A stretch of 59,435 bases of DNA, filler included, from Circinaria calcarea (taxonomy: Eukaryota), in the NCBI GenBank assembly GCA_051942165.1. It is 5 parts of 5 records of this genome, joined end to end, with 100 filler letters (N's around TTAATTAATTAA, not from the genome) between each part and the next. Parts side by side here need not be neighbours in the genome. Positions count along the whole stretch, not along the records: positions 11,913 to 23,724 come from JAVECS010000638.1; 4 more parts are not named here. One strand, written 5' to 3'. Of the stretch, positions 1-47,635 are shown piece by piece. The stretch's first letter is position 1; every line of letters starts with the position of its first letter. The position numbers were made by a program, and so were the translations under genes. The notes under the pieces were generated by a model. It saw only the letters and a list, made by a program, of their open reading frames with translations. It searched no databases and had not been told where the DNA came from.

Positions 1-1232
1 TCCGGCATGAGACCGTTCGTCGGGTTGTCGATGCCTTTAAACCACCGCAGATCGGACACGACCCCGCGGTGAGCGCCGACTCCACCTACCCCGCGAACCA
101 TGCGGACGTCCCAGCATTTCACCCATCCGTCACCAGAGCCGGAAAGAACGCGGTGGCCGTCTACGCCCCAATCCAGGGCGTAGATCTCGCGAATATGGCC
201 GTCGAGGATCATGACTGTCCGACCGGTCCGTAAATCCCATATCCGGCCTATGCTGTCAAGTCCGGCGCTGGCGAGTAGAGAGCCGTCGGTGTTGAAGCTT
301 AAGGCATAAACTTCTCTGGAGTGACCTTCTTGCAGTTGGAGCTCGGTAGTGGTGTTGATGTCCCATAATCGCCAAGTGGTATCATAAGATGCTGAAGCGA
401 GGTACTTCCCAGAGGGATGAAATTCAACCCTGCAGACACGTCCAGTATGACCCGCTAATGTTGAAATGGGAGTATCTTGGGTCAGAGACCACAGATGAAC
501 GTTGCCTTCCTCGCCACCGGAAGCAAGGTTTACTGACTCCTCTGAGACAGAGGTACCGGGTAATGTAGATCCTGGCATCCAACTGATCCCCCCTACCCGA
601 TCTGTGTGGCCTCGGAGGGTCTTCTTTGTGTCTAAATTCGGGACGTCGAGTAGTTTGACACCTCCTCCCCAATTACCAGCGGCTATAGTTTGTCCATCAG
701 GGGAAAATCGTGCGATACTGACAGGTCTGTCGCCCGCAATTTGTGTTCCGACCAAATCAAACATCTGGAGGCGATCTTTGGTAGCTTTTCGGTGCTTGAT
801 ATGTGTACGTAGCGGAATTGAAGACTCTGCCTTCTGGCTTGCTATCCTTACCTTCGCCCTGGGTAGCGAGTATCGTGCAATGATCTTTCGAGCCTCCAGT
901 AGCTCTTGTATCCCGGCAGAATAGAATTCTTCCTCTTGCTCATGCTGTGATTCCTCAACACCTCCATCCTGCATTTTTGTATCACCATCCGGTTCCACCT
1001 CCTTGGCTAACAGTTGCCTAAGCCGATCTCTTCGATCTCCAGCATCTTCACCGAAGAGCGTCACAGGCTCTCCCATCCCCCGCAGACTGGCACGCACTCG
1101 GCCATCATCGGTCGGGACAGCAATAGCGGCTGCACGTCGTCGCTGCAAGAACTGTGACAACAGGATCGCGGAGGAATCTGGTCCGGCATCGTGCTCCGCC
1201 TCATCGTCTTCTTCTGAGATAGAGACTTGCAT
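1..1232 (-). CDS. PRP4: U4/U6 snRNP protein Prp4 (PRP4 motif + WD40 repeats); 3' end runs off the window, possible extra 5' exon
   Basis: Minus-strand translation gives RRAAAIAVPTDDGRVRARLRGMGEPVTLFGEDAGDRRDRLRQLL (PRP4 motif) and WD repeats such as WDLRTGRTVMILDGHIREIYALDW and SGSGDGWVKCWDVR. Confidence 0.9.
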   Translation of the reverse strand, partial: MQVSISEEDDEAEHDAGPDSSAILLSQFLQRRRAAAIAVPTDDGRVRASLRGMGEPVTLFGEDAGDRRDRLRQLLAKEVEPDGDTKMQDGGVEESQHEQEEEFYSAGIQELLEARKIIARYSLPRAKVRIASQKAESSIPLRTHIKHRKATKDRLQMFDLVGTQIAGDRPVSIARFSPDGQTIAAGNWGGGVKLLDVPNLDTKKTLRGHTDRVGGISWMPGSTLPGTSVSEESVNLASGGEEGNVHLWSLTQDTPISTLAGHTGRVCRVEFHPSGKYLASASYDTTWRLWDINTTTELQLQEGHSREVYALSFNTDGSLLASAGLDSIGRIWDLRTGRTVMILDGHIREIYALDWGVDGHRVLSGSGDGWVKCWDVRMVRGVGGVGAHRGVVSDLRWFKGIDNPTNGLMP

Positions 1233-1845
1233 CGCTGTTTTATGAGGCAGTAGTACTAGTTCGACAAAGGGTTGCAATTACATGTCTGCTACCAAGAGCT
1301 GTTCTTGTAGCTTATCTAACGAGTGACTTAGGATCCTTTGATTGAAGCATTTTGGACCCTCTTAGCAATGAAAGATGTCTTCGAGACGACACCTGTGCTA
1401 GTGTGAGACTTTGTGCGGAAGATGGAGAAGACGGAGTTGTTAACAGACGGATTTGATATCGACGTTTGGACTGCCTATGGTAAAGAACACAGGACTAGGA
1501 GACCATCAGGTCACCAAAAGCAGCGCTAATGGGATTTGAACCCAAATGTTGGTGATATTCGCGCAATATTCGCTTTCACCTAACGAGTCTTTCAGTAAGT
1601 TAGCGCCACCGTCATCTGTGGCTGAGGCTCAGCCTGAGGAAAACGGATCGATGGGTAACTTTTCCGAGAAGGATTTTACGCATAGCTGTTTGTATCAACA
1701 TGATTTCATTCGTTTTCTTTGTTCTTGCATTTGATTCTATGGTAAGCTATCACTGAGACCTCATATTCCATTCACTGTGAGCTACTAAGCTATTCTACAT
1801 ACCACAATGGACTGTTTTTGTCCATACCTTGGATAATAGAGTTTG

Positions 1846-3038
1846 ATGGCCACGATGCGGCCGCTAAAAGCCGTTGGTCTTCTGAGTCTCTCACCCGTCG
1901 TACAGAGCTCCTCCTGTCGAGTTAGCCCTTTCTTCACACAGCGCGATTTTCAGAATCATTGCGTGCCATTTTCGACTTCTACTTTGCCAGAGTCCCTCAG
2001 CTATCGAATAGCAGCTTCATTCTCTGCAAAAGGCCGTCGCTTCAATCCCAAACATGACCTGTTCTCTTTTGACCCGCAAAACCAGCCCAGCTTTAACCAC
2101 GGCACCACGAGGCGAAGACCCAACAGTGGCCAAGACTCCTTTTTCGTCACGGGTATCGGGAATAGTACAAATGTGGCCTTTGGAGTTGCAGACGGGGTAG
2201 GGGGCTGGATTGATTCTGGAATCGACTCGGCCCATTTCTCACATGGTCTATGCGAGTCAATGGCAGCTGAAGCACAGTCGACGGACTTGTCTAAGAAAAA
2301 GAGGCTTTATGCCGGCGAGCTCCTGCAAAAAGGTTATGACAAGGTTATTGCAGACAAAAGTGTCACAGGTGGCGGGACTACGGCATGTATAGCCATTGCC
2401 GGAAGCGACGGGAACCTGGAAGTGGCCAAGTAAGCCAACCAATCAGAAGTAGAGGGTCGGGGCTGGCTAATGATACCCATAGTCTGGGCGACTCTGGATT
2501 CATTCAACTTCGGCCGAATGCAATTCATTATTCCTCTAATCCTCAAACTCATGCCTTCAATACCCCTTATCAACTATCCATCATTCCTCCCAGAATCTTA
2601 GCGAGATCAAGGATCTTTGGCGGTGGACCTTTGCACGACTATCCTCGAGATTCCAGTATTACCAATCACCAAGTCAGACATGGCGACGTGTTGGTCTTCG
2701 CAACTGATGGCGTTTGGGACAATTTGAGCTCTACCGATATACTCAAGATAGTTAGTCGATATATGACCGGCTTTGGTGCATGGAGGACAAGCAAAGACGG
2801 CTTAAGTGCGTCGGATGAATTGAACATATTGACCCAAGCCGGCGGGATTGCTAAAGAGCACGAGAATACGATTCAGGCTTTACTGGCCGTCGCGATTGCC
2901 TCGGAGGCAAAGATGGCCAGCCAGGATACGAAGCTAGATGGCCCGTTTGCTAAAGAGGTGCACAAATTCTATCCCCATGAGGATTATCGTGGCGGCAAAG
3001 TCGATGATATTTGTGTTATAGTAGCTGTAGTGGTCTAG
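1846..3038 (+). CDS. PTC7: PP2C-family protein phosphatase Ptc7/Azr1-like, 2 exons (intron 2430-2482)
   Basis: Motifs GQDSFF, GVADGVGGW, GGTTACI, spliced ANLGDSGF, ATDGVWDNL and GGKVDDI. GT..AG intron with a GCTAAT branch site. Confidence 0.9.
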
Positions 3039-3426
3039 CCGCACCGTTCCGGAAGATCTCGATTTAGCCAGGCGTCTGGGCGAAATGTAGCATTGCCATC
3101 TTGTTGTTCATAGCCAATAGACATAATATATTATTTATGTCCATGCTGGGGATACTCTTCCATACTTACAGTCAGACGATCGGAGCTTACTCGACCAGTT
3201 CAGGGGGCGGCCGAGAACCGTTGCCCGGCCAAGTTGTATTTACGAAACGCTCGGACCATTCTCCTTGAATTTGATAATGGACTTCCTCGCGACTAGACCG
3301 TTGCGCGACAATATTTTTGAAATCCATGCAAGGTATGCTTTGTGGTACATGATAGTATACACTTCATGAAGGCATGTCATACGATGCGCGTGAAAAGCTT
3401 CCAATTGATCCAATAGAACGCGCGCT

Positions 3427-5973
3427 ATGACCACAGTCTCACCTACACCTCTTGGCTGTGGCCCCGATGCTCTACCTAGACGAGTACCGTCTCGACAATT
3501 TACACGTTCTCAGCCACTGCGACCAGGACTGAAAAGAGGATCTCCTCTATCGAGAGTTTCAAATGGCCATTCCAACTATTCAGCAGCTATTCAGCCGAAT
3601 TCGTTAGGAGATAGCTCCGACGACGAAGGTTCTGCTCCGCTTTTAAGCGCTGCGGCGGAGGAGATATTGGGAGTAAGAGGTGTGAACTTGGAAAAAATAT
3701 CATCGCAGAGAGAAGGGAGCGCTATCGATGGCACTGCGATACATCCTGCAAGAAGCAATTCCGTGAAACAAGCAAGCCCCATACCGCTTCGACCACTATC
3801 CGGCCTTGAGCAACGGACAACCTCCCCATCATCATTACGCTCCGGAAGCCCCCGCGTAGTAAAGATTATCTCAGGCACCAGGGGATCTTCAGGCTCTGCG
3901 ACGCTTCGACGTACAGCATCTACTATAAACGTGTTGCGTGGTAATAGTCCTATTGGACGACAAGACCAAGCAGGACTCAATACCCCAGTTCCATTACCAA
4001 GGCAAGTTGATCAGGGAATCGTTCATAAAACTTCAGAGGATATCGTTCCTACGCAGACACGAGCTACAACTCCTTGGCAAACCTCACAAATTGGCGCTGG
4101 TGCCTTGCGCACCTCGCCTGTGGGGGGATTAGGGGACGCAAACCAAGATGCGGTGCTACAGTCGGGGAGTTTGACAGTGAACAGAACTAAAGGCGAAGAT
4201 CTTGGGGTCATCGGATCGTTAAGGATAAAGAGGGTTGGCAAGGTCACCGGAAGGTTCCTGAGCGGGCCTGCAAGAAGAGGGATCATCAGGAGACATAGCG
4301 AAGAAGACCAAAGTCCAACCCAGCAAGGAGAGACGCCTCCTGGAGAGTTACGACAGGCTTCTTCCGAAAACCAAGAGAACGAAGGCCGAGAGCATGTATG
4401 TCTCTTACCAAGTACTCAAGAGAAGCCAGCTTCAGGCGTGGATAAAGGACTACATCAACAGCCGCATCATGTTCGCTTTGCCAGCCAGCAAATCAACTCT
4501 AAAGATTGGGCAGTGAAATCAACGGAAAAACCTCAGCTGGCAGGTCCGGAAGAGAACAAAGCAATACCGCCGCGATCCGATGTTTCTAACAACTCTGTGA
4601 AACAGTTCAAAGTACCGCCATTGCCCCCTCTACCTTCACGGTATGATCAAGAAAACGAGCCTCCGCCTACGTTCAAGCGTAACAAGTCCAATGGTCTTGA
4701 TCTTCTGGATCAGCCCAAGAAATTCTCGGTGATGGTGGATGACAAAATGCCAGCTAAGACGCCTATAACAATCTCGCCACCAAGGAGGGTACTTGCGCCA
4801 CGTAGCCAAAACACACCATTACGGCAAGCACCGCCTCCTCCCAAAATGACCGTATTGGAAACCGCAACGGCTACTGGAGGCGCTGCATCAGCATCTCAGG
4901 CGAAAAAGAAAAGGAACTACATTTCTGTCAATGGAAAGTTATTCACCCGTATGGATTGCATCGGACGTGGCGGCAGTGCTAAAGTCTACCGAGTCATGGC
5001 AGAAAACTACAAAGTGTTTGCATTGAAACGAGTGTCTCTGGAAGATGTAGATGAGCTAGCCATTCGTGGTTACAAGGGCGAAATCGACTTGCTTCGGAAG
5101 CTGGAGAACGAAGACAGGGTGGTCCGGCTGTTCGACTATGAGATTAACGATGAAAGACAGACACTCAGCGTTCTCATGGAAATGGGAGAGTCCGATCTTA
5201 ACCGAGTCCTCACCCTGAAACTTAACGCCGAAAATGCCAAGTTTGACATTAGCTTTACCCGCTATTTCTGGAAAGAGATGCTCGAGTGCGTTCAAGCAGT
5301 TCACCAGTACGACATTGTGCACTCCGACCTGAAGCCTGCCAACTTCCTCCTCGTTCAAGGGAGACTTAAGCTCATTGACTTCGGCATCGCCAACGCTATC
5401 CAAGACGACACCGTCAACGTGCACCGCGAACAACAAATCGGTACGCCCAACTACATGTCTCCGGAATCCCTCATCGACTTCAACGCCGCGAGCGGACTCC
5501 CTTCTAGCCTAGGCAAGTTGCTTAAGCTTGGTAAACCGAGCGACGTCTGGAGTCTCGGCTGCATCCTCTACCAAATGGCCTACGGGAAACCCCCCTTTGC
5601 CCACATTGCCAACCAGCAGCTCCGCATAATGGCCATCCCAAATCCGAACCACGTCATCAGCTATCCGGAGCGCGGAGTTGGCGGTGCGGCTGTGCCTGCG
5701 GGCCTCGTGCGGACGTTGAAGAAGTGCCTCAACCGCAATCTGGCCCAGCGGCCGACGGTGGCCGAGCTCTTGGCCGAGGACGATCCGTTCCTGCACCCGG
5801 ATCATCAGCTCCAGGGCACGATCCTTGTTGGACAGGATTTGATCGCGAGGCTGCAGAGCAGCATCGTCAATCGGATCCGCGAAAAGGGCATGCCGGGTGA
5901 TGCGGAGCTGTCGACGTGGCCGGCAAAACTGTACCTCAGTATCAAGGCGATTGTGGACGAGGGGCAAGCTTGA
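3427..5973 (+). CDS. MPS1: Spindle checkpoint kinase Mps1/TTK, single exon, 848 aa
   Basis: C-terminal kinase domain with IGRGGSAKVY, HSDLKPANFLLV, DFGIANAIQDDTVNVHREQQIGTPNYMSPE and DVWSLGCILYQM, typical of Mps1. Long disordered N-terminus. Confidence 0.92.
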   Translation: MTTVSPTPLGCGPDALPRRVPSRQFTRSQPLRPGLKRGSPLSRVSNGHSNYSAAIQPNSLGDSSDDEGSAPLLSAAAEEILGVRGVNLEKISSQREGSAIDGTAIHPARSNSVKQASPIPLRPLSGLEQRTTSPSSLRSGSPRVVKIISGTRGSSGSATLRRTASTINVLRGNSPIGRQDQAGLNTPVPLPRQVDQGIVHKTSEDIVPTQTRATTPWQTSQIGAGALRTSPVGGLGDANQDAVLQSGSLTVNRTKGEDLGVIGSLRIKRVGKVTGRFLSGPARRGIIRRHSEEDQSPTQQGETPPGELRQASSENQENEGREHVCLLPSTQEKPASGVDKGLHQQPHHVRFASQQINSKDWAVKSTEKPQLAGPEENKAIPPRSDVSNNSVKQFKVPPLPPLPSRYDQENEPPPTFKRNKSNGLDLLDQPKKFSVMVDDKMPAKTPITISPPRRVLAPRSQNTPLRQAPPPPKMTVLETATATGGAASASQAKKKRNYISVNGKLFTRMDCIGRGGSAKVYRVMAENYKVFALKRVSLEDVDELAIRGYKGEIDLLRKLENEDRVVRLFDYEINDERQTLSVLMEMGESDLNRVLTLKLNAENAKFDISFTRYFWKEMLECVQAVHQYDIVHSDLKPANFLLVQGRLKLIDFGIANAIQDDTVNVHREQQIGTPNYMSPESLIDFNAASGLPSSLGKLLKLGKPSDVWSLGCILYQMAYGKPPFAHIANQQLRIMAIPNPNHVISYPERGVGGAAVPAGLVRTLKKCLNRNLAQRPTVAELLAEDDPFLHPDHQLQGTILVGQDLIARLQSSIVNRIREKGMPGDAELSTWPAKLYLSIKAIVDEGQA

Positions 5974-6490
5974 AAGAATTGGAGATATTCTCTTGGTTAT
6001 TGTTTTGTATATAGTTTTCGCTTCTTGGAGAAGACGGGGAAGGTATTGGAAGGGAGGGGGTTTTGGATGGAGCTTTTTTTTGGGTATTCCACGGTTTTAC
6101 GAATTATGAGAGGAATTGGTTTGTTATGCTAGCGAGTAGCCGTGGTCGGTGAGCGTTTGAAGCCTAGGGTGGTACTCTACCACGTCTATTTCTAGTGCCT
6201 GATAGGGGCTTTTTATAGATTCAGTCACATGCATTCTGTATAGTATGAGAAGACTGACTGAGAAGTCTACCAATACTACTGATAATATCTCAAATTCGAA
6301 TAGTCCAAGCCAAGGGATGATTTAGTTATGTACAGTCTATTCAGTAAAGATGATGACGGGCCACCATCTTTTGGGTACTTCCGTCCAGTCTTTGACTGAA
6401 ACTTCAAGTCCTCCACCCAAGCAAGCTAAGACTCAATGAAGATTCGGTCTTCCATAATTATCTCCCTATATCCAACCCATCCCACCTATG

Positions 6491-7240
6491 CTATACACCT
6501 TTATTCCCTACTTCCACCCCACCCTCATCACCCCCATGATCCTTCCCGGCCTCCCTCTCCCCTTCCACCTCCTCCAAACTCCTCACCCTCAGCTCCTTCA
6601 CCTTGAGAATCGTAAACCGCAGCTTAGTCTTCACGTGCTTCACGTGCCTCTGCCGCCTCTTCGTCTTCTCCAGCACGCGCATCGGCTCCGCCTCCGTACC
6701 CGCCACCACCGCCCGGCACTCGAACAGTCGTTCGTCGAGGTAGGGCGCCCCTTGCATCGTGTAGTCCCGGCTGCCGATACTGGAGGCGCGCGTCAGGCGG
6801 AGGACGTCCCCGGGCCGCACGAGGGGCATGTGGAAGGGGAGCCGGAGCGTGTCGCCGAGAGTGAGCAGGTAGGGCCGCGCGTGGATGTGGGCGGTGATGT
6901 AGTGGGAAGGCTGGGCGCGGAGGAGAGGGAGGAGTTCTTTGACTGAGGGGGAGAGGGGCGGCAACGGAGAGGTTGGTGGTGGGGGGAGAGGCGAGGACGG
7001 TTGAGTGCATGTCGACTGTCGCAGAGCTGATTGTCGCGGCCTTGTGGATAGTGGTGCAGGTGTGACGTTAAAGACACCCGCGTTCCGGAGAGATTCGGGC
7101 GGTGGGTTTGGTTTGACGAAGTTGGCTGTTGTTGAAAGACGGGCGCGAAGGGGGAGCAGGAATGTTGGGGGGAGGGCGAGGAATTGGCATTGGGCCTCCA
7201 GTGCTACTCGTTGTATACTTCTGCCCAGGATCATGGTCAT
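6491..7240 (-). CDS. MRPL49: Mitochondrial ribosomal protein bL21m (Mrpl49-like)
   Basis: HYITAHIHARPYLLTLGD..GDVLRL..GSRDYT..KTKRRQRHVK..FTILKVKEL matches the L21 fold. Presequence-like N-terminus. Confidence 0.8.
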   Translation of the reverse strand: MTMILGRSIQRVALEAQCQFLALPPTFLLPLRARLSTTANFVKPNPPPESLRNAGVFNVTPAPLSTRPRQSALRQSTCTQPSSPLPPPPTSPLPPLSPSVKELLPLLRAQPSHYITAHIHARPYLLTLGDTLRLPFHMPLVRPGDVLRLTRASSIGSRDYTMQGAPYLDERLFECRAVVAGTEAEPMRVLEKTKRRQRHVKHVKTKLRFTILKVKELRVRSLEEVEGEREAGKDHGGDEGGVEVGNKGV

Positions 7241-7813
7241 CGTGTAACTGCTGATACCTAGAAGTTATGATTCTTCGATATCGGAGATGTTCAACTGAAA
7301 TAGCTTAGCGGCCCGCGATAAAAGCGCTTGCGCTTCGAATGCCAAGAACTAAATACAGCAATGTATCAAATACGAACTACATGTAAACTTACCTAGCAGA
7401 CAACTTCGAGTTTCCGACGTCAAAATGATTCCAAGCCAGAGGCGGAGGCTATGCTCTCAAAGCATATGCAGGTGAGAGGAAGGCTGATGTAAATGCACAT
7501 GTATCTGTCTATGTTTGTCTCAGCTGCAGCCACGGTAGCTTAGGTGGGATGCTTGCAGCCAATCAGGTATTTTGTGATAGACGCCGTTATGGTCAAAATG
7601 CCTGCAGTGCAACCCTACCTCCTTAATCGCAGCAATATGGCATTTTGGGGGTCGCGTTTTGAATCGGCCATGTCTTATTAATTCAGCCTGCTACACGATG
7701 CCGTCGGTCGTGTTCATGGGGAGCAGCTTTTCCGTTCCTTTTCTATCTCCCATTCGGCATGCCGGTAATATAACAGGTGGAAGGTCCACGTACTCTCCAT
7801 TCTCCCATCACGT

Positions 7814-9067
7814 ATGCACCCTACTCTTGATGATACCACCTGTCCCCCGACTGCTGCGCGATGCGGTTGGGGGCCCCAGCAGAATGACCGCGACATTATG
7901 GATATCACATGGAGTTGCGGCTCCGCCCTATTCATCTGCTTGTGGGTAATGCTACATCTGAATATACCAGCAGAAGATGACGGCTACTGGCGCATCTTTT
8001 GGCGCAAAAGTCGCTGGCTTCTCCTCGGCTTGCTAGCTCCCGAGGTTCTCCTGCTGTCCGCCTGTGGGCAATGGGCGTCTGCCCAAAGGTCGGTGCGAGA
8101 TATGAGAGCGTTGGGGCACAATCGGTGGACGATGACACACGCTTTCTACTCCGACAGCGGCGGTTTTGTGCTGAAGCCTCTGGGCAGCTTCCCGTTTCCA
8201 ATCACGGCCAAGCAGCTGCACTATCTGGTCGAGGAGGGACATTTGGAGACTCCGGGTATATCCAAGAGGGAGATTTCCGATAAGAGCAATGCGGATATAT
8301 TTACGAAAACCATCGCGGCCTTACAACTAGGCTGGCTTGTGCTGCAATGTGTGGTGAGAGCTATATTAGACCTTCCCGTCACGCCTCTGGAGCTCTCGAC
8401 TGTCGCCATTATTTCGTGCACTGCATCAACATATTTCTTTTGGCTCCATAAGCCCTTTGACGTGGAGCTGCCAACTGTTCTTGAGACCCACGTCAGTATA
8501 GCTAATATCCTGCTCCGCGCAGGCGACGCCGCAGCAAGCCCTTTCCGAGACACTCCGCTGGACTTTGCGGATCCGCAAGTCCACACACTAAGTCTATTTC
8601 GTGGCGATTCGAGGCTGTTTTCTTGGCTCACCTCAACCAAGCGCCGGCCGCTAAACCGTATCCCCAACGATCGGAATCCGCAATTCGATTCTTTCCTGCA
8701 GCGCTTGCTCCTCGCCTTCATCACGGCGACCTTCTCCACCCTTCACTTTTGCGGGTGGAATTTTGACTTTCCCAGCACCGCGGAGCAGATCATATGGCGG
8801 ACTTGTTGTGTGGTGGCCGAAGTCTCGCTCGGCGTCCACGGTGTCCATGAGATGTACCAATACTTTTTTGATCCCGGCTATCGCCAACGACCTTATATAC
8901 ATGATGACAAAGTTAACTGGCCGGGTAATATGCTCTTTCTCATTCCCGCCGGGCTTTATTTCATGTCCCGTATCGCTCTGTTGCTGGCTGTCTGTTCTTC
9001 AATGCGGTCTCTTCCTCGAGGCGCGTTTATCAATGTGCAATGGACGGCGTCCATACCGCACATTTGA
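7814..9067 (+). CDS. Uncharacterised fungal multi-pass membrane protein, 417 aa
   Basis: Long ORF with several hydrophobic segments. Motifs SC..LFICLW..LHLNIP, HAFY.DSGGF, DKS.AD.FTK.IA.LQ and FW.HKP.DV recur in a fungal hypothetical membrane family. Confidence 0.7.
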   Translation: MHPTLDDTTCPPTAARCGWGPQQNDRDIMDITWSCGSALFICLWVMLHLNIPAEDDGYWRIFWRKSRWLLLGLLAPEVLLLSACGQWASAQRSVRDMRALGHNRWTMTHAFYSDSGGFVLKPLGSFPFPITAKQLHYLVEEGHLETPGISKREISDKSNADIFTKTIAALQLGWLVLQCVVRAILDLPVTPLELSTVAIISCTASTYFFWLHKPFDVELPTVLETHVSIANILLRAGDAAASPFRDTPLDFADPQVHTLSLFRGDSRLFSWLTSTKRRPLNRIPNDRNPQFDSFLQRLLLAFITATFSTLHFCGWNFDFPSTAEQIIWRTCCVVAEVSLGVHGVHEMYQYFFDPGYRQRPYIHDDKVNWPGNMLFLIPAGLYFMSRIALLLAVCSSMRSLPRGAFINVQWTASIPHI

Positions 9068-11812: not shown

Positions 11813-11912
11813 NNNNNNNNNNNNNNNNNNNNNNNNNNNNNNNNNNNNNNNNNNNNTTAATTAATTAANNNNNNNNNNNNNNNNNNNNNNNNNNNNNNNN
11901 NNNNNNNNNNNN
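11813..11912. other. Artificial contig spacer (N-TTAATTAATTAA-N)
   Basis: 100 bp of Ns with a central six-frame stop linker. Confidence 0.98.
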
Positions 11913-12059
11913 ATATTTGCTGTTCCGCATGGAGTGGGCAAGCTACAGGGGCATGACTACCATAAATACTACTATAAACCCATAGTATTTCGATAGTTCA
12001 ATACCAGAAATTGACCTCTCAAAATGCTACAGCACAACGTGACCGTAGCTATTTTATCA
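11913..12059 (+). mobile_element. Partial LTR-like element (left copy), cut by the contig end
   Basis: Reverse complement of 14653-14799 with 2 mismatches in 147 nt. Ends ...TTTATCA and is followed by AGTAG (CTACT on the minus strand). Confidence 0.85.
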
Positions 12060-14652
12060 AGTAGAGCCACTAGTGCTATCTGCAGAGCGGTACAGACAGT
12101 TTGCGAGAAGGCAGGATCATGTATTTGACTTGTGGCTGCCGGCTCTAGCAATGCCTCCTCAATAGTCCAGTCAGGTTTTCGCTGTAGTCGGCTGAGTACG
12201 TTATCCAAATATCTAATTGCCTGTCTGAAAACAGCGTATTCCTGCAGCAGTTTATGGCCCACTATAGAATAGACGAGTCAGCAATAAAGCTCTGCAGGGG
12301 CCATCCTGTACCCAGGTCTTGAATTTTCAGGAGGTCACTTGCGTTCACGAATAGTAATCTTCGTGAGACTTTTCAAGATTGGTAAGCTGACCCAAATCTT
12401 CCTACGGAAGGGGAAGAAAAAGCTTAGACAAGACTACCAGGATAGTTTGGACTCACTTTGTGGCCATTGAGCTCCTTGTCCTGTAAAGACAAAACCAATG
12501 CGTCTCGCAGCAGAGCTGGGGGCCTTTCCGAAGGTTACCTTTTTGGAATCAAGTCCGTCGACCAACACTCTAGACTCAGCGACGGCGAAGGCTCGGCGGG
12601 AGAAAGTCGATCTTCGACGAGAAAGGGTGTAGAGCAAGTCAGCGAGGTCAAAGTTGCTGAGTGAGGCGGAGATCTCGGAAACGGTTAACTTCAAGGCTCG
12701 TTCATCATGCGCAGACATTGGCAGCAAGACGAATGGTCGAACTCCTGCTTGTTCCACCTGAGATATCTTGGCTGTGGTGCACCAGCTGACATATGGAAGA
12801 TGGTTATTGCCATCCTGATACCCAATTTTACAGCCACTAGTGTGACCGTTGGTGTGGCCGTCAATGTAACCATTAGTATAGCCATTCTTATGGCTGTTGA
12901 TGAAGCCATTGGTACTTGGTAACCCCCTTGGGATCGAATTCTTATATGAGAAAGGAAAGCCGCGTAGTTGATACCCTGGAATGACCACACTCGGATGGTC
13001 CAAGATGCAATGTGCATTGGCTCCGCCATATCCAAAACTATCCAATCAATTAATATTCGAGGTTAACGCTTCCATTGATTTTAAGCCCGCTCCTAGCCAG
13101 AAAAGACGAATAAAAAAAAGGGAAAGAAAAAGACAGATATGTCTCACCTGTTGATGCTGACACGTCGAAGCAGATGAGTAGGCCATGGTGTCATCTTGGT
13201 GACAACCTTAACTTTTGCGCTTTCGAAATCGATGGCAGGATTGAACTTTTCAATACCGATGGTAGCTGGAATCTCGCCATGCTCCATGGCTAGGATCGCC
13301 TTCATGATCTGGGACATAGCGCTCGCAGCTTCACTGTGTCCGAGGTTTGGCTTTATCTGTAAAGTGACTGGTCAATGAAAAGCATTATATAAGAGTCTCT
13401 CAGTATTCTAAGAAGTTTTTGGCGGAGGAAATAACGTACTGATCCAATTAGAAGAGGCCCCTTGGTACGTCCAGAAGAAAAGACTCTGCCCACAGCGGAA
13501 ACCTCGATCGGATCTCCAACCGCTGTACCTGTCCCGTGGCATTCAGCGTACCCAGTCAGATCCGGGTTCAGGTTGCCAGCATTCTGATATGCCTGCCTTA
13601 TCACAGCCTCCTGACCATCAGGGCTAGGATGAGAGATGCCGCCTGTTCTGCCGTTGGCGTTAAAGGCTGTACCACGTATGACAGCGCGGATCGGGTCTCT
13701 ATCCGTCATTGCGTCTGAAAGAGTCTTCAGATAGAAGGCACCGAAGCCTTCAGCCCTTGCATAGCCATCTGCTGCTACATCAAAGGTATGACAACGAGAT
13801 GTAGGGGAAACAGCCCCTAGTCTGGTTGTGAAGATCTGGTTATCTGGGCCTAGGATAACATTGGCACCGGCAACAATAGCACCAGAGCAATCCCCATTTC
13901 TGATGGACAACACAGCTAGGTGCAAGGCATACATTGATGCAGAGCAGGCCGTGTCAACCACCAAACTGAACCACCAGCGTTAGCACTTATATATATATAT
14001 ATTTCCATCTTTCACGTCTCAAGAGTCTATGAAGCTCGGTTTGCTCGAAAGCCAAAGGGCAGACTGACCTTGGTCCCTGAAGATTGAAGACATAGCTGAT
14101 GCGGTTGCTCAAAATAGTAGGACCACCTCCTGTTACAACATAGGGAAGAGTGTGTTCTGAATCTCGGTACTGCATCATCTGGTGCTCATTATTAAAATTC
14201 CCCACAAATACACCTATCTTGGTGCCAGTAAACCGCTCGAGAGGTACACCGGCACTCTCAACGGCTTCATATATAACCTCGAGCAATTTTCGCTGACTTG
14301 GGTCTAAAGCCATTGCCTCTGTAGCCGTAATGCCAAAGAAGGTCTGATCGAAATCCCGGGTATTTTCGTTGAGCAAAAAACCACCCCTTATATACATGCT
14401 CCCTGGGCGTTGGCCATTCGGATGATAAAAGCCGTGCACATTAATGCGATCCTCAGAAAATTCAGAGTAGCCATCATGTTCTTTTCTCAGCAGATCCCAT
14501 AATTGTGATGGATTACGAACTCCACCAGGCCACCGACAGCCTTTCAAAAGTTAGGAACTAGTGCCTGAGATGAATAAAAGGGGGTATAATAATGGATTTA
14601 TTTACCTATTCCGACGATCGCGATTGGCTCTGGAAATTGCGCCAGAGAAAGA
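12060..14652 (-). pseudogene. Inverted 5' part of an HR-PKS: KS domain, linker and N-terminal half of AT; no start codon
   Basis: Exons translate to FPEPIAIVGIG|CRWPGG, DTACSASMYALH, ECHGTGTAVGDPIE, KPNLGHSEAAS, SFGYGGANAH, FVFTGQGAQW and SQTVCTALQIALVALL, then run into the repeat. Confidence 0.9.
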
Positions 14653-14901
14653 TGATGAGATAGCTACGGTCACGTTGTGCTGTAGCATTTTGAGAGGTCA
14701 ATTTCTGGTATTGAACTATCGAAATACTATGGGTTTATAGTAGTATTTATGGTAGTCATGCCCCTGTAGCTTGCCCACTCCATGCGGAACAGCAAATATG
14801 TAAACAAAGGGTTCATTGAACCTCCGGGAACACTCTGCATGGAATGCGCGGGTGTGCAGAACTTCTGCATGGAAAACCATATGTTCCGCCACCTTCCAAC
14901 A
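14653..14901 (-). mobile_element. 249-bp solo-LTR-like element, probably Copia-type
   Basis: TG...CA termini; the minus strand begins TGTTGGAAGG, similar to Ty1/Copia LTR ends. It interrupts the AT coding sequence with a 5-bp TSD CTACT (14902-14906). Confidence 0.75.
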
Positions 14902-17900
14902 CTACTCAGACAGTGGGGGATATCCCCTGTTGCCGCAGTTGGACACTCCTCTGGTAAGACCCCTTTTCGCATTCTTGAGCTCTCATCAGATGTACCTTAG
15001 TAGTTCTGGAGGCTTAAAACTAACGGCACGTAGGAGAAATCGCAGCATCATATACTGCCGGTCGTCTGAAGGCGAGCGAGGCGATTGTTTTGGCATACTT
15101 CCGTGGTAAAGTGGTGACTACCAATCCAAAAAATGGTCTGATGATGGCCGTTGGCCTCGGGTCAGACGAAGCCCGATCGTATTTAGACGATCTCGAGGCT
15201 GAGGTTAAAATTGCGGCTATCAATTCCCCTGGCAGTGTCACCTTATCTGGCGAACCAAAAGCCATCGAAGCACTAAGCCAAAAGCTTGCTAGCCAAGGTA
15301 TTTTCGCCAGAGTGCTGAAGACTGGCGGCAACGCATATCATTCCCACCACATGCTGGTTCTTGGAAGGCCGTACGAGGATCAAGCCACCGAAGGTCTTAA
15401 CGATATTAAGGCTCTGACGGAGAATGAGCCGCCTGCCCCTTTGCTGAAATGGATCTCGTCAGTGACAACGCAGGAGGAACAAGGGTCACCTCTTCCTGAG
15501 TACTGGCGGCGAAACCTGGAGTCGCCGGTGCTCTTCTTTCCAGCTGTAGAAAGACTAGCGAGAGAAGAGCCGCTAGACCTTTTGATCGAAATCGGACCAC
15601 ATCCAGCGCTTAATGGTCCGTTGAAGCAGATTCGCTCAAGTCTAGAGAAAAGGGGCATAGTGCTCCCGCCTTGTCTAGCGTCTCTTCGCAGGGGCGAACA
15701 TGATGTGGTAAGCCTCTTGACTCTCGCAGGAAATTTATTTATCAGCAATGCTTCTATCGACTTGGTATCTGTCAACGCGACCGAGGACAAGACGGAAGCT
15801 GACAGCGCCATCTTGCTTCGTCACGGGTTCTCATGTGTCGACCTTTTCCAGTACCCGTACTCATATTCAGAAGTGCCGGTCTACTTCGAGAATCGGTTCA
15901 ACAAGGAATATCGTACCAGGAAATATCCCCGTCACGACTTGCTCGGAGCCAGAGTCCCTGCAGGTTCAAGGACACACCCACAATGGAGGAATGTGCTGCG
16001 CGTGAAGGACCTGCCTTGGCTCGACGACCACAAGCTACTTCCCTACGCTGTTCTCCCCGGAGCCGCATACATTACGATGGCTGTGGAAGCAGTCACTCAA
16101 CTGCACTATGACGACGCGGAGCTTGCAGGCGCCGTTGCGAAAATTAAGTCCTTCAAGCTTCGTCAGGTTGCTATCAACTCTGCGCTCCGTGTAGAGGACA
16201 CGGAGCTGGGCATCGAAACAGTCTTGAACATGGAAAAAATGGCCCTGACGAACGCCCCTCTCCTGTCGCAGTGGTACAGGTTCAGCATTGGCTCTATGGT
16301 ACCTAATAGTGATATTTGGACGGAGCACTGTACCGGCATGATATGCGTGATGACAATAGAAACCTCGATAGATGAGGATCAAAGACTAGAAGTGGATGCA
16401 CGTTCGAGGTCACTCGATATGACGCGCTGGCACGAAAAACTCGCTGCTACCGGTCTGGGATACGGCCCAGCCTTCCAAGGTCTGTCAAACTTGCAAGCCT
16501 ATCGGAGCACCAACACCGCCGCTGCCAATGTTGCTTTGAAACCCACTATCGACGTCGCAAATGAATCCACGTATCCCATCCACCCTGCAACGCTGGACAC
16601 GTGCATCCAGTTGGTTCTAATATCTTGTCATGCGGGTCAGGTCGAGAATTTGGAGAAGGCGGTCGTTCCAGTTTTCGCGGACAACATTTGCATATGGAAT
16701 CCAGAAGGTCACAATGCAAAGCAAGCCTGGGGAGTAGCAAGCGGAAGCCTAATGGGCCTCCGAAGCGTTTACGCGCGAGTGCAACTTTACAACCTGTCTT
16801 CCGAGGTTCCGCTCCTAGAAATAGGGGAGCTCAAGCTCGTGACTTACGATGGAGCACCACATACTGACGATTCTAAGATCGCACGAGAACCGTACTGGAG
16901 GCCCGTGGCGAGAATCGACTCGGACACTTTAACAGCACGCACCGCCGGAGCCTTATTCAACCCGAAACAAATATCAGCAGCAACTTTCGCGGCTCTCGAT
17001 ACATTATCTGCTCATGTCATTGCAAGTATCGAAGAAGAACTCCGGAAAGCAGGCACCATCCGGGATAAGACTCGTAATCATGACAAGTTTTCTGACTGGA
17101 TCAAGGCGTGGATGAGCTCATCTGAGCGTAAAGATGTTCTTAGTGTCGGCAGAAAGGCAGATAGATTCGCTATCATTGAGAAACTGGCTACGGAATTGCA
17201 TGACATTCCGGAAGCGACATGTCTGAAAACCCTACACGATAACATTGACAGGGTTCTTAGTGGAGATACGAACAGTGTCAAAATACTCATGGAGAGCAAT
17301 CTTCTAACAGAGCTTTCTACGTCTGGCATCTTCGTTAAAGGAGCTTAGTCGCAGCTTCAAGATCTAGTTGATCTGCTGGCTCATAAAAACCCCCGAATGC
17401 GTATCTTGGAGGTCGGCGTCGGATCGGCTGGTGCAACGGCTGCCGTTCTGGAAACCTTATCAGCCAAGTCCACATTCAAGAGATTCGCGGAATATGTGCT
17501 CACGGACTCCGCAGACTGGTGTCTCTCCAATGCGAAAGTGAGGTTTAGCGATTATGGTGGAGGATTGGTTTTCCAGACCTTGGATATTCTTAAAGATCCT
17601 GTCTCTCAGGGTTTTGAGGAGCATTCGTTCGATTTGATCATCGCCGCAGGATGTCTGATCGAGCTTGACGATCCTGCTAGTGGACTTGAGCACCTACACA
17701 CTTTGCTGAAACCTTCAGGATCGTTGGTCTTAGTAGAGATTACACGCTCAGCATTAACCCCGGAGATTCTTTGTCGCACTTTGACTGGAAAATGGTCTCA
17801 AGGGGAACTCTTTATGACGGCTGCGGAATGGAACGATGTTCTCAAAAGATGTGGATTTTCAGGTGTCATCGTGTCCCTCCAAGATGTAAGTACCTCTCCT

Positions 17901-20900
17901 TCCCCCGTGGCACCTACTGGTACCTGCGCTCCTTACTCGAATCCTGTGAGCTTCTCTGCTCTAGATTCCTCTTGGAACTTCAATGCTAATAGGAATGAAC
18001 TGAAAAGTATGCCGGTGATCAAGGCACATCAACAGTCATGCTCTCGAAAGCCCATGGACTCGAGGCTTCCGCACTTACAACACGGCGACCATTAGACGTC
18101 TATCTCGTCTTCCGAGATAATCACCCTCCTCTGCTTGTAGAAATCATTGCGGCGGTCCTAGCCAGGGATGGCCGGGACGGGATTCTCATTGATCTCTTTT
18201 CCAGCTATCAAATCCCCTCCAATGCTCTAGTCATTTCCCTGGTGGACCTTTGTGGTTCTACTATCACATGCCGAGATGAGACTTATCTTAAAGCAATGAA
18301 GACGCTGATTCCACAGGCTTTGGGGATGGTCTGGGTCGCCGCTGACCTCCACACACCGGCTGAGTCTTCTATCATGAAGGGTATGTTAAGATCCATCGCT
18401 GCCGAGAACGTACTCTCCAAATACTGCTTTGTTGAGATTGATTACAGCCACTACACCTCCCAAGCAAGAGCTGCGGAATTGATACTTGGCAAGCTGGACG
18501 AGTTGCATGTATCTTCGTCTTCAGGTGCCGCTGTTGAAGCTGAGACTGTACTTCGTGGAGGATTTTTCTATGTGGAACGTTTACTTCCTGAGGAAGGTCT
18601 CAACGAAGAATACCGCCGGCGGCACAGGCTTGAAAATGATGTTCAAGAATGTGCTGTGAGTGATCAGGGGCCTCTGAAGGCATGTTATGGTCAGCCTGGT
18701 CTGCTCTCGTCGTTGTACTTTAGCAACGACCCTGCTTTTAGCCAGACGTTGGATGACGACTGGATCGAAATAAAGACCCAAGCTATAGGACTTAATATGA
18801 AGGTAAATTCTTTTTCAATTCCCCCTAAGGAAGCAATCTAGTTGCTACGTCTCATCTATCTCCTTCCTCGAAGCAGCCACTAATAAGGTGATGAAAATTT
18901 CAGGACTTGGCAGTGGCTACGGCAAGATTTGATCTGAACAAGCTTAGTACGGAGGCAGCGGGTGTCGTAACTCGGATCGGTTCAGCCGTGACGTCCCTTA
19001 AAGCGGGCGACCGAGTCTTCGGCATGATCCCTGGAAATATGGGCAACTACCTCCGGTCATCCGCTTCGCTTGTTACCAAGATTCCAGACCAGCTCTCAGC
19101 CGAGGGCGCTGCATCCATGCCCGTGGCTTACCTCGCCTCGATCTACGCTCTCCGCCACTTGGCAAACCTAACCAAGTGTGAATCCGTCTTAATCCAATCC
19201 GCAACGGGTGGCTTGGGGATGGCAGCTATTCAGGTGGCTCAGCATCTAGGCGCGGAGATCTTCGCAACTGTAGGCAATGACGAGAAGCGTAAGATACTAG
19301 TTGAGGAGTTTAATATCCCTCTCAGCCACATTTTCAACTCGCGAAAGATGAGCGCTATCGACGAGATCATGAAGGTCACTCAACGAAAGGGTATTAATGT
19401 CATCCTCAGCAGCGCTGGAGGAGACTTAATGCATGAGATGTGGAGATGCATCGCGCCTTTGGGTCGCTTTATTGACGTCGGTAGGACAGATGTCCTTGGT
19501 GGCGGCAGACTTGGCCTTGAAGTCTTCAGAAAAAATGCCACATTCTCATCTTTTGATATGGGACTGGTCTACAGCCAGAAACCCTCCGTAATGGAAAAGT
19601 AGGTATTCCACCGACCTCCCCTTCCTGATACTACTCTGCAAGGAACTTCTCGCTAATTAAGACTTTAAGATTGATAACTGAGATGAACGAGCTTATAGAT
19701 CAGAGCGTCATTGGTCCCATCAAACATCTGACTTCTTTCGATATCTCTCAGCTAGAGTCTGCTTTGAGCTTTTTCTCCAAGGGCGTGCATACCGGAAAGC
19801 TTGTCATCACGTTTCAGGACCCCAATACGACCTTGAAGGTTTTACGACCAGTGGTTCGGGCTTCATTCGATCCAAATGCTGCATACCTGCTGGTCGGCTG
19901 CTTGGGCGGGCTTGGACGCAGCGTGGCCACCTGGATGGTCGAGCGAGGAGCTCGGCATGTCATTTTCTTCTCCCGATCTGGAACCCACAAACCTGAAGCT
20001 GCTTCTGTTGTGAGGGATCTGGCCGAAACAGGCGCAAAACCTCAAGTCGTTCGATGTGACGTCACCGATGAAAAGACTCTTGTGTTGGCTGTGGAGCAAA
20101 TCACTAGCCAACTACCTATAAAAGGAGTGATACACGCTGCCATGGTTGAGGGTGTAAGTTTGTCCGCGCTATTCTCAGCCCAAAGAAGAAGACTATCTAC
20201 AACCAAATGCTGTGTCTAAAATACTGACAGAGAATACAGGATTCTTTCTTCAACAATACTTCCTTGTCCCAGATCCGGAGTGTCCTCGCGCCTAAGGTTA
20301 CAGGTACCGTTAATCTCCATAAAGCCACGCAGCATCTCCAGCTAGACTTCTTCCTAATGACCTCCTCCATCGTTGGAACCGTAGGCACGCCAAGTCAGGG
20401 AGCGTATACGGCTGCGAATGCCTTCCAGGACGCTTTCGCCAGGTTCCGCCTTTCGCAGTCTCTGCCTGCTACAGCCGTTGGACTTGGACTGGTCCTTGAG
20501 GTTGGCTCGGTCAGCAATTCCACTGGATTCCAACAAATGCTCCAGCGCAATGCTATCGAGCCATGGTTCCGTCCTATCTAAACTCGACCCCAGCTGTCCT
20601 GCTCAAGTCGTGACTGGACTCGAACCCGCTCACTTCATTTCCTATCTGGAGACCGGCCGGGCGAATGATCTTGTCTGCTTCAAGAACACCAGGTTCCAGG
20701 CAGTCACGCAGGCGACTTCAGAGCGAGCTCGGGCGCGCAACTTGGTTGCCAACAACGCGTCTGGAGGGACCTCGTCGCTCGCCAACAGGTTGCAGGAGGC
20801 ATCGTCGCCGGAAGAAAAGCTAGCGATTGTGCGAGAGGCTATCAGTTCGCGGATCGGAGAGCTTATAAACCTTGCAGCGGAAGATATTGATGTTGAGAAG

Positions 20901-21062
20901 CCGATTTCACATTATGACGTGGATAGTCTTGTAGCTGGGGAGCTGAGAAACTCGCTGCTTAGGTTTTTTGGTGTAGAAGTATCGCTGCTCCAGTTGCTGA
21001 ATGAGAGCACAAAAATTGAGGATCTGGTGAAGAAGGCTGCTGGGTTAGATAGCAAGACCTAG
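14902..21062 (+). pseudogene. 3' part of the HR-PKS: AT C-half, DH, cMT, ER, KR, ACP; premature TAG at 17346-17348 and frameshift near 20555
   Basis: LLRQWGISPVAAVGHSSG|EIAA and AYHSHHM (AT); HKLLPYAVLPGAAY and HPATLD (DH); ILEVGVGSAG (MT); LIQSATGGLG (ER); YLLVGCLGGLG and GAYTAAN (KR); DSLVAGELR (ACP). Confidence 0.9.
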
Positions 21063-22528: not shown

Positions 22529-23724
22529 TCAATACCCTGCACAGGCACCTGAAATTTCACAGGCTATTTTCTCAGCAAAAGCATCTAGAATAGCATTAGA
22601 AGAGATTCCAACACGGTTAAGAAGAGTACTTACAAATGGTAGCTTGAGGGTGACCAGGCGGCAAGATTGGGAAAGCTGCCGCATCCACAACTCTCAAGCT
22701 CTGCACGCCGATAACCCTTGACTGGTTATCCACAACGGCCTTACTATCGTCCGGGTGACCCATTGCACAGGTACAAGCGGCATGGTAGAGGGTGTTAAAA
22801 CTCTTTCGAATAATGCTTTCAATCTGTGCATCGGTTTGAATATGAAGACCGGGAAAGGCCTCTTCTCCAATAACGAACGGCTGCATCGCCTTTGATTGCC
22901 AGAAAGCGCGTACACGCTTGAATCCTGCGATTGCAACCTCTACGTCTGCGCGATCGGTCAGCCAGTTCGGGTTGATTATAGGCGGGACTGTAGTATCGGC
23001 GGATGCAATGGTCAGATTGCCACGTGACCGTGTTGCTACCAGCGAAACTGCAAGCGAAGCATAGTTGTACCCGTCATTCGGATCGCCTGTGGCCAAGTTC
23101 TCTTGATAGCCCAGATAGGCGCCCACGGCGAGGTACTCAAGCTCGGGCCAATCTGCAGGAAAGGTTGCAAGCGCGGCAAGTGTGCTGTTCGACAACGTTG
23201 AACGTAACGGTTGAGGGACTTTCTCCCACGCAAGTACGTCCGTGGTGGGGTTGGTGTACATTCCCGCCGCCCTCTCGTTGAAATCTTTAGCTGCTTGAGC
23301 GGCAAACGCAGCATTAGAGAAAGACGAAAATGTGGGGGCATTAACTCGGGAAGAAAGACCAAAATAAATATGATCCTCCATATTCTGGCCAACTCCGGGC
23401 CGGTCTGCAATAACAGGTATGCCATATTGTTGCAAAGTCCTAGCCGGGCCTACACCAGAAACCATCAACAATTGCGGCGACCCAAACACACCAGCTGACA
23501 AGATAACTTCTTTGGTTGCTGACAAGGTATATATTCTGCCTTGAGTGTCCACAATCACGCCGGTAGCCTTTTTATTCGCATCGAAGAGAATTTTCTTCGT
23601 CATGGTCGACTGGTAAACCATGTAGTTGGAATAAGCCAGCCCTCTGCGGAGAAATGACGTTTCCGAGGAGTCCCTCGTCATGGTTGTTGCGTTGATTGTG
23701 AACATGCTGTAAGACTGGCCCGAT
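22529..23724 (-). CDS. GMC oxidoreductase, C-terminal part; 5' end lost in the gap
   Basis: EVILSAGVFGSPQLLMVSGVG, VGQNMEDH, YHAACTCAMG, VVD..RVIGVQSLRVVDA and PGHPQATI|YAFAEKIA (last intron 22585-22633). Confidence 0.9.
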
Positions 23725-23824
23725 NNNNNNNNNNNNNNNNNNNNNNNNNNNNNNNNNNNNNNNNNNNNTTAATTAATTAANNNNNNNNNNNNNNNNNNNN
23801 NNNNNNNNNNNNNNNNNNNNNNNN
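23725..23824. other. Artificial contig spacer
   Basis: N-TTAATTAATTAA-N, 100 bp. Confidence 0.98.
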
Positions 23825-35630: not shown

Positions 35631-35730
35631 NNNNNNNNNNNNNNNNNNNNNNNNNNNNNNNNNNNNNNNNNNNNTTAATTAATTAANNNNNNNNNNNNNN
35701 NNNNNNNNNNNNNNNNNNNNNNNNNNNNNN
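35631..35730. other. Artificial contig spacer
   Basis: N-TTAATTAATTAA-N, 100 bp. Confidence 0.98.
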
Positions 35731-47535: not shown

Positions 47536-47635
47536 NNNNNNNNNNNNNNNNNNNNNNNNNNNNNNNNNNNNNNNNNNNNTTAATTAATTAANNNNNNNNN
47601 NNNNNNNNNNNNNNNNNNNNNNNNNNNNNNNNNNN
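47536..47635. other. Artificial contig spacer
   Basis: N-TTAATTAATTAA-N, 100 bp. Confidence 0.98.

Follow-up and report, generated by a model that had tools for sequence, protein, structure and literature searches.

Analysis of the window, the whole stretch of 59,435 nucleotides from Circinaria calcarea examined here, showed a highly reducing PKS gene that is knocked out by two oppositely facing copies of an LTR and is broken in either orientation of the segment between them. In the assembly, the segment that carries the KS appears flipped relative to the rest of the gene. This apparent flip is probably a misjoin made by the assembler, with the gene order in the organism still colinear. The core of the LTR is collapsed in the assembly, contigs end after 140 or 141 nt of shared repeat, and the information needed to phase the copies is missing.

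A highly reducing PKS gene with two LTR insertions

The gene contained the domain set of fungal highly reducing PKSs, KS-AT-DH-(MT)-ER-KR-ACP; the minus strand encodes the KS domains and the plus strand AT-DH-MT-ER-KR-ACP, as the first-pass annotation had described (Table 1). Homologues were divided in the same manner. Of 120 listed, five were tested, and in every one the first ~700 residues from the N-terminus matched the minus strand, from 14645/14541 down to ~12055–12120, and the remaining part matched the plus strand from ~14900. Among the 30 top homologues shown, 29 had an AT stretch that ran unbroken across the split, and the motif was absent from the remaining one; the coding frames on both sides agreed. 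The order in relatives was thus colinear (5/5 mapped, 29/30 printed), the ancestral order expected for a transposon-mediated inversion. The best homologues shared 60–69% identity with the PKS, and two of the top ten carried prosolanapyrone synthase as source label; the PKS was accordingly labelled as putatively Sol1-like, a type assignment that follows automatic labels of homologues. A structure search returned generic PKS relatives only, and no tRNA genes were detected within the window. A GMC oxidoreductase gene lies downstream of the PKS.

LTR copies of the same family stand at both ends of 12060–14652, 2.6 kb apart and in opposite orientation, as in transposon-mediated inversions and in agreement with the two opposite insertions proposed earlier. 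Over its 147 nt, the left arm is the reverse complement of 14653–14799 except for 2 mismatches, which fall at element positions 5 and 7; the CTACT duplication is split across the segment, both as first annotated. The probability of a chance match of either 5-mer is ~1e-3. These features are confirmed for the sequence as assembled, which says nothing on whether the organism has that orientation. Contig G000:C638 begins at window position 11913. The sense of the LTR strand was assigned by reference to the primer-binding site in an older relative. Since positions 8–249 of the right-hand LTR are common to other contig ends, it may be a composite of two loci.

The PKS copy is broken in four places, by the two LTRs, a nonsense codon and a frameshift. 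All of these persist in either orientation, so that flipping cannot act as an on/off switch of the PKS; a programmed invertible switch would have a working gene in one orientation, and neither orientation provides one here. RIP indices did not set the LTR or the PKS apart from ordinary contigs.

With their TG...CA termini and 5-nt target-site duplications, the LTRs are of the Ty1/copia type. Perfect duplications were found in five older copies (GAACC, AGTTC, CCTTC, AAATG and TCCAG). In an older family member that is 76% identical (the C241 copy), the LTR is followed by the primer-site-like motif GGTTATGAGCCC, which we take to be the tRNA-Met primer site, and then by protease-like, rve (E 0.0026, below the cut-off), SH3_retrovirus (E 6e-11) and RVT_2 (E 2e-24) matches. 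This is the copia order, with the integrase before RVT_2.

Table 1. Positions of features in the window.
Feature	Position	Strand	Remarks
Artificial linker N44-TTAATTAATTAA-N44 between contigs G000:C637 and C638	11813..11912	.	Not biological; contigs unrelated
Copia-type LTR arm interrupting AT exon, 147 nt	11913..12059	+	Contig starts inside it; strand is the element's own sense
CTACT, half of target-site duplication of AT-exon insertion	12060..12064	-	Precedes left arm on minus strand
PKS segment, exon 1 to mid-AT	12060..14652	-	KS with TACS, HGTGT and GHSE motifs; KS-AT linker; first part of AT
AAAGA, half of target-site duplication of exon-1 insertion	14648..14652	+	Other half after LTR, at start of C1135
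LTR as assembled, 249 nt, TG...CA	14653..14901	-	Positions 8–249 are the core identical to other contig ends
CTACT, second half of AT-exon duplication	14902..14906	+	Directly after element
Remainder of highly reducing PKS	14902..21062	+	AT (GHSSG)-DH-MT-ER-KR-ACP
In-frame TAG, start of MT region	17346..17348	+	Amino acid at that position in 30/30 top homologues
Frame change between KR and ACP (approximate place)	20554..20556	+	No room for intron; 11/12 homologues, 1 gave no hit

Collapse of the LTR core at contig ends

At least four young, near-identical LTR copies, with 1–2 differences in the stretches compared, were found in the genome. Four entry flanks (AAAGA, CTACT, AAGAC and AATGG) and three exit flanks (CTACT, AATGG and AAAGA) surround one core, and all three exit flanks have their duplication partner among the entries. 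The promoter contig, predicted earlier to carry AAAGA/TCTTT beside an LTR, was recovered as G000:C1135, where the same LTR is followed by AAAGA; this contig also carries O-methyltransferase, P450 and SDR. For the fourth young copy (flank AAGAC), none of 22 hits obtained with one mismatch allowed was an exact exit partner; its exit contig may have been filtered out, and the shortest contigs noticed were just over 1 kb. The internal domain of the young family was not found in the assembly (eight of nine matches were fragments of 71–88% identity) and was present in none of the seven young flanks, while matching flanks occurred on no young copy as assembled. We infer that the young copies are solo LTRs whose internal domains are gone; the young internal domain could also be missing from the assembly through binning or a length filter.

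A core of 242 identical nt, common to at least four LTR copies, was assembled once, and every 37-mer of this core recurs in other contig ends. Core positions 8–249 are identical wherever two contigs overlap, making phasing by private bases impossible, and no word of up to 243 nt includes private bases from both of the joined sides. Because a read of at least 244 nt is needed to tie the two sides together, both orientations yield the same graph. The assembled path on which the duplication halves are swapped crosses exactly this collapsed core, which is unphasable below 244 nt.

At the ends of C4811 and C492 and at the start of C638, the stretch shared with the next arm measures exactly 140 nt rather than 141, and the three dead-end arms each stop 140 nt past their last private base. 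C1135 and C2055 share an identical first 141-mer and then diverge, and overlaps of exactly 141 nt were present in five unrelated end pairs among 33 sequences checked. Across the genome, contig ends overlap by 140–141 nt, as is characteristic of a de Bruijn graph with k=141; together with the collapsed core, these overlaps substantiate the caveat, raised in the first-pass annotation, that the contig ends inside the repeat in the way a de Bruijn assembly breaks. The default top k of MEGAHIT is 141, and from the overlaps we infer that this was the assembler used.

Only one of the four copies was run through by a contig, whereas resolution based on read pairs should also have joined C4811 to C2055, both of which carry AATGG. 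On either side, the arm that was joined is the one whose private base is closest to the core (positions 7 and 250), so that graph shape alone would favour this join. One run of public reads was found, containing 0.05 of the words; its alignment at 80% likeness consisted of 13 short pieces, with no joints and no piece located at either junction.

Misjoin or inversion

A misjoin would have arisen as follows. A young Ty1/copia-type LTR of 249 nt entered the putatively Sol1-like PKS twice, at one site in exon 1 (duplication AAAGA) and at a second in the AT exon (duplication CTACT), in opposite orientations. Both insertions would have been reduced to solo LTRs by loss of their internal domains. The order in the organism would be promoter (C1135) - LTR - KS...AT - LTR - AT...ACP. 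All copies were merged into the single core by a short-read de Bruijn assembler, with a probable top k of 141, which would have led one contig through it from the exon-1 side to the AT side, and cut the remaining arms. Because the two LTRs face opposite ways, a wrong pairing mimics an inversion with swapped duplications. The earlier claim that 12060–14652 is inverted is thus unsupported by an assembly in which the core was assembled once and no word below 244 nt ties its sides. Since the graph is identical under both orientations, nothing in it shows colinearity either, and the odds of a misjoin rest on the prior. In a study of MEGAHIT bins, chimeric contigs were common (444/640; interspecies chimeras; 10.64898/2026.10.15.759294). 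Against a misjoin, an excerpt of a review names MEGAHIT among the assemblers that detect chimeras by read pairs (PMC7299287); moreover, two inverted repeats of 99% identity at a distance of 2.6 kb are well suited to recombine, and a flip is neutral where the gene is already dead.

A real, fixed inversion is unlikely. In that case a crossover within the LTRs (positions 8–249) would have flipped 12060–14652 and swapped the duplication halves, and the junction that the assembly left open would be the reciprocal one, KS end - LTR - C1135. The assembled path bears exactly the signature of such an inversion, but an arbitrary path through the collapsed repeat gives the same one, the join cannot be read-backed at k=141, and the reciprocal junction is absent from the assembly. 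Ectopic recombination between oppositely oriented transposon copies is a known route, modelled in an excerpt of PMC12368964, and polymorphic repeat-flanked inversions are described for Candida albicans in an excerpt of PMC12047244. Among 25 resolved older LTR copies, a perfect 5-nt duplication was present in 8 (10 with up to one mismatch) and absent in 17, indicating that LTR flanks in this lineage are often truly reshuffled or decayed; since resolved older copies are this often discordant, genome-wide concordance of duplications does not separate a misjoin from an inversion. The youth of the copies at the PKS leaves little time for an inversion.

It is very improbable that both orientations coexist in the sample or the natural population, with host homologous recombination recurrently flipping the 2.6-kb intragenic segment. 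The geometry permits this, the inverted repeats being 99% identical over the 147 nt compared, but the other readings need no site-specific recombinase, and the PKS is interrupted either way, so that a flip cannot switch it on. The earlier suggestion that the segment could still be invertible found no support. Hardly credible is a single event that made both LTRs, a staggered-break inversion that duplicated an LTR already present at one end and 5 nt at the opposite end. In its favour, staggered breaks can leave inverted duplications (excerpt of PMC12368964), and of the four youngest copies, two are found within 2.6 kb in a 31.5-Mb genome (~1e-3, a rough uniform estimate). Against it, the termini of both copies fall exactly at TG...CA and each copy has its own 5-nt duplication, which is the footprint of an integrase; each copy also has a private base that distinguishes it from the other two young ones, and the clustering is explained by relaxed selection, the gene being dead.

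Misjoin or real inversion, either is a known kind of event. Most likely, the locus adds one more case of retrotransposons killing a secondary-metabolite gene and matters little. It does call for caution: swapped target-site duplications in a short-read assembly prove no inversion when the repeat is longer than k, and the same holds for features at contig ends with 140–141 nt of repeat. A true inversion would be a small instance of a known mechanism, and wider interest would arise only if both orientations coexist. Were the flip recurrent, the locus would serve as a natural and neutral reporter for recombination between inverted repeats of 249 nt, and it would capture a biosynthetic cluster in the course of being dismantled.

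Related systems and other LTR copies

Exchanged target-site duplications are reportedly diagnostic of transposon-mediated inversion in the Galileo work on Drosophila buzzatii. As in such inversions, opposite same-family copies stand at the segment ends, and the duplication halves appear exchanged on the assembled path; unlike them, the exchange is visible only across a collapsed short-read repeat, one junction is unassembled, and the segment is 2.6 kb long and lies inside one gene. In common with MEGAHIT-type misjoins, a repeat longer than k was assembled once, contig ends overlap by 140–141 nt, and one arm is run through; the chimeras counted in 10.64898/2026.10.15.759294 are interspecies, whereas the PKS case would be intragenomic and inversion-mimicking. 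The copies resemble Ty1/copia solo LTRs in their TG...CA ends and 5-nt duplications, the solo status of the PKS copies being presumed. The PKS shares KS-AT-DH-MT-ER-KR-ACP with Sol1 (prosolanapyrone synthase) and with AmpB, described in an excerpt of PMC9146101 as the PKS of the amp alpha-pyrone cluster, a putative kinship that follows automatic labels of homologues. The O-methyltransferase, P450 and SDR of the promoter contig are further points of likeness; the copy here differs in being broken and in the GMC oxidoreductase that comes after it. At the level of search results, literature on PKS with solo LTR or retrotransposon insertion, or on inverted LTRs, contained no report of this locus.

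Other LTR copies of the genome were compared as well. In line with a misjoin, a second LTR family has an internal-domain contig, C1992, that runs through a merge, and five other arms stop 140 nt past their last private base; a third family, collapsed without any arm running through, speaks against it. As a candidate control chimera, the C266 copy was dropped, being interrupted by other sequence rather than misjoined, as were the C797 and C2494 copies, which are only 94% alike and hence not collapsed. C4659, a young copy of another family, has a private base yet mismatched flanks, with the partner flank at the end of C1948; this mismatch may be a real exchange.

Two opposite LTR insertions in a PKS gene

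Two copia-type LTR copies were found inserted in opposite orientations, with target-site duplications AAAGA and CTACT, in a Sol1-like polyketide synthase (PKS) gene. The 147-nt inverted repeat (its arms differing at positions 5 and 7 of the element) and the split CTACT duplication, both described in the first-pass annotation, were real. The existence and opposite facing of the insertions are independent of any doubtful join, as the unique KS segment contains the two junctions. The window comprises five contigs of ~11.8 kb from a fungal assembly of 31.5 Mb in 5512 contigs; repeats across its linkers were rejected as concatenation artefacts.

By Pfam matches, KS is encoded on the minus strand, and the plus strand carries AT, DH, MT, ER, KR, and ACP. 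All five homologues mapped by tblastn (taken from 120 listed) switched strand at the LTR break, and the AT stretch was unbroken across the split in 29 of the 30 top homologues, the remaining one being without the motif; the ancestral gene was therefore colinear. The closest homologues among those listed were fungal highly reducing PKSs (60–69% identity), with the source label prosolanapyrone synthase on two of the top ten. The predicted promoter contig was identified as C1135, which opens on the final 139 nt of the element, with AAAGA directly behind them; on its reverse strand, an ATG-led ten-codon frame reaches the element, at the distance found in homologues before the first KS motif. Its O-methyltransferase, P450, and SDR genes probably form the rest of the PKS cluster, and the same types occur in the sol-like amp cluster, as described in PMC9146101. 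With the two insertions, an in-frame stop, and a frame change, the gene is a pseudogene in either orientation, its decay having occurred already before the LTR insertions or since.

Coordinates of the features (window positions unless a contig is named)
Feature	Position	Strand	Remark
Contig G000:C638	11913-23724		inverted repeat and split PKS at its very start
Partial LTR (left arm)	11913-12059		inverted repeat of 14653-14799; CTACT precedes on minus strand
LTR (element)	14653-14901		249 nt, TG...CA ends; AAAGA before, CTACT after
In-frame TAG in PKS	17346-17348		amino acid at site in 30/30 homologues
Frame change in PKS	near 20554		supported by 11/12 homologues
GMC oxidoreductase gene, 3' of PKS	22617-23724	minus	truncated by contig end
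N/TTAATTAATTAA linkers, all identical	11813-11912, 23725-23824, 35631-35730, 47536-47635		between unrelated contigs
O-methyltransferase, P450, SDR matches	C1135 (L047) 1464-8312		upstream of PKS
Stretch adjoining fourth young copy	C492 (L005) 146-900		AT-rich, decayed-looking, GC 0.40
Young C1717-family LTR	C4659 (L078) 271-456		private base; mismatched flanks TATAT and TCTTA
Intact copia element, different family	C1717 (L067) 5580-5996		1706-aa frame, 186-nt LTR
Open frame, 404 aa	C241 (L051) 2806-4020		where old copia RT frame ends

Collapse of the young copies in the assembly

In window orientation, the young copies had four entry flanks, AAAGA (C638, internal), CTACT (C638 start), AAGAC (C492), and AATGG (C4811), and three exit flanks, CTACT (C638, internal), AATGG (C2055), and AAAGA (C1135). 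Every exit flank had its duplication partner among the entry flanks; an exit partner of AAGAC was searched for in the assembly and not found. Two of the four copies lay within 2.6 kb, for which a rough estimate under uniform insertion is ~1e-3, and an insertion-tolerant dead gene would be the simplest reason.

The core (element positions 8–249, 242 nt) was present once in the assembly and identical wherever two contigs overlapped, and each of its 37-mers recurred in another contig end. The ends of C4811 and C492 and the start of C638 shared 140 nt, not 141, with C492, the C638 start, and the internal copy, respectively; C1135 and C2055 opened with the same 141-mer and differed at base 142. Among 33 sequences checked, five unrelated end pairs overlapped by exactly 141 nt. 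The assembly thus derives from a de Bruijn graph with a top k of 141, presumably the MEGAHIT default, although no literature passage stating this default was found. The caution of the first-pass annotation about de Bruijn breakage was well founded. Linking the private bases at positions 7 and 250 requires a 244-nt word, and therefore colinear and inverted genomes give an identical graph: the assembly is unable to phase across the two insertions.

Origin of the apparent inversion

The assembled flip is probably a misjoin, and the inversion proposed earlier between opposite LTR copies is left unsupported by that identical graph; colinearity is equally beyond what the assembly can show. The assembly ran through one of the four young copies, which counts against pair-based repeat resolution, since this would also have joined the C4811–C2055 copy. 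The arms joined were those branching nearest to the core, which suggests that graph shape set the assembler's path. In a second LTR family, the internal-domain contig C1992 likewise passed through the merge, while five other arms ended 140 nt past their last private base. MEGAHIT is not known to use read pairs for more than local extension. The one public read run found contained 0.05 of the words, with zero cover at the junctions. According to a preprint, 444 of 640 near-complete bins from MEGAHIT include contigs that are chimeras between species (10.64898/2026.10.15.759294). Speaking against an artefact, a review names MEGAHIT among assemblers using pairs against chimeras (PMC7299287).

A fixed LTR–LTR inversion is unlikely but has precedents: published work describes inversion between opposite transposon copies as a known route (PMC12368964) and segregating inversions flanked by repeats in Candida albicans (PMC12047244). 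Duplications were perfect in just eight of 25 resolved LTR copies (10 with at most one mismatch), which points to real exchanges or decay in the lineage. This count covered uncollapsed copies of three families aligned over both ends, excluding partial alignments, contig-end copies, and two copies beside a primer site; values were entered by hand and LTR ends extrapolated from alignments. The mismatched flanks on C4659 may likewise reflect a real exchange or else a chimeric join inherited from a smaller k; TCTTA has its partner in the entry flank on the terminus of C1948 (locus L095, the contig's start), and the C1717 family otherwise collapsed without any arm being run through. An ongoing flip is highly improbable, and a single staggered-break event even more so. 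None of the four readings gives a switch, because no orientation yields a working PKS.

Copia-type families in the assembly

The own-genome search with the element scored 40 matches from 48 candidates. An older copy on C241 (76% identity) was followed by GGTTATGAGCCC, which we take to be a tRNA-Met primer site, on the strand opposite to that of the first-pass annotation. Protease-like and integrase matches, all weak, come next, ahead of SH3_retrovirus and RVT_2. This is the copia order, so in its own sense the element reads as the reverse complement of 14653-14901. A young internal domain of this family was not found in the assembly; barring a loss of such domains during binning, the young copies therefore appear to be solo LTRs. 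The 404-aa frame on C241, possibly a nested insertion, by eye resembles a non-LTR reverse transcriptase/RNase H. Only ~90 nt outside the 5' LTR of the C1717 element lies a second LTR copy in inverted orientation; as a result, the two ends of the contig run into one and the same 141-mer, each in the direction opposite to the other. Ten RVT_2 matches were located (L057–L066, on C1308, C1717, C1992, C2276, C2436, C426, and others), four of them inside open frames of 1247–1706 aa, so that several copia families appear to have been active recently; signs of RIP were few.
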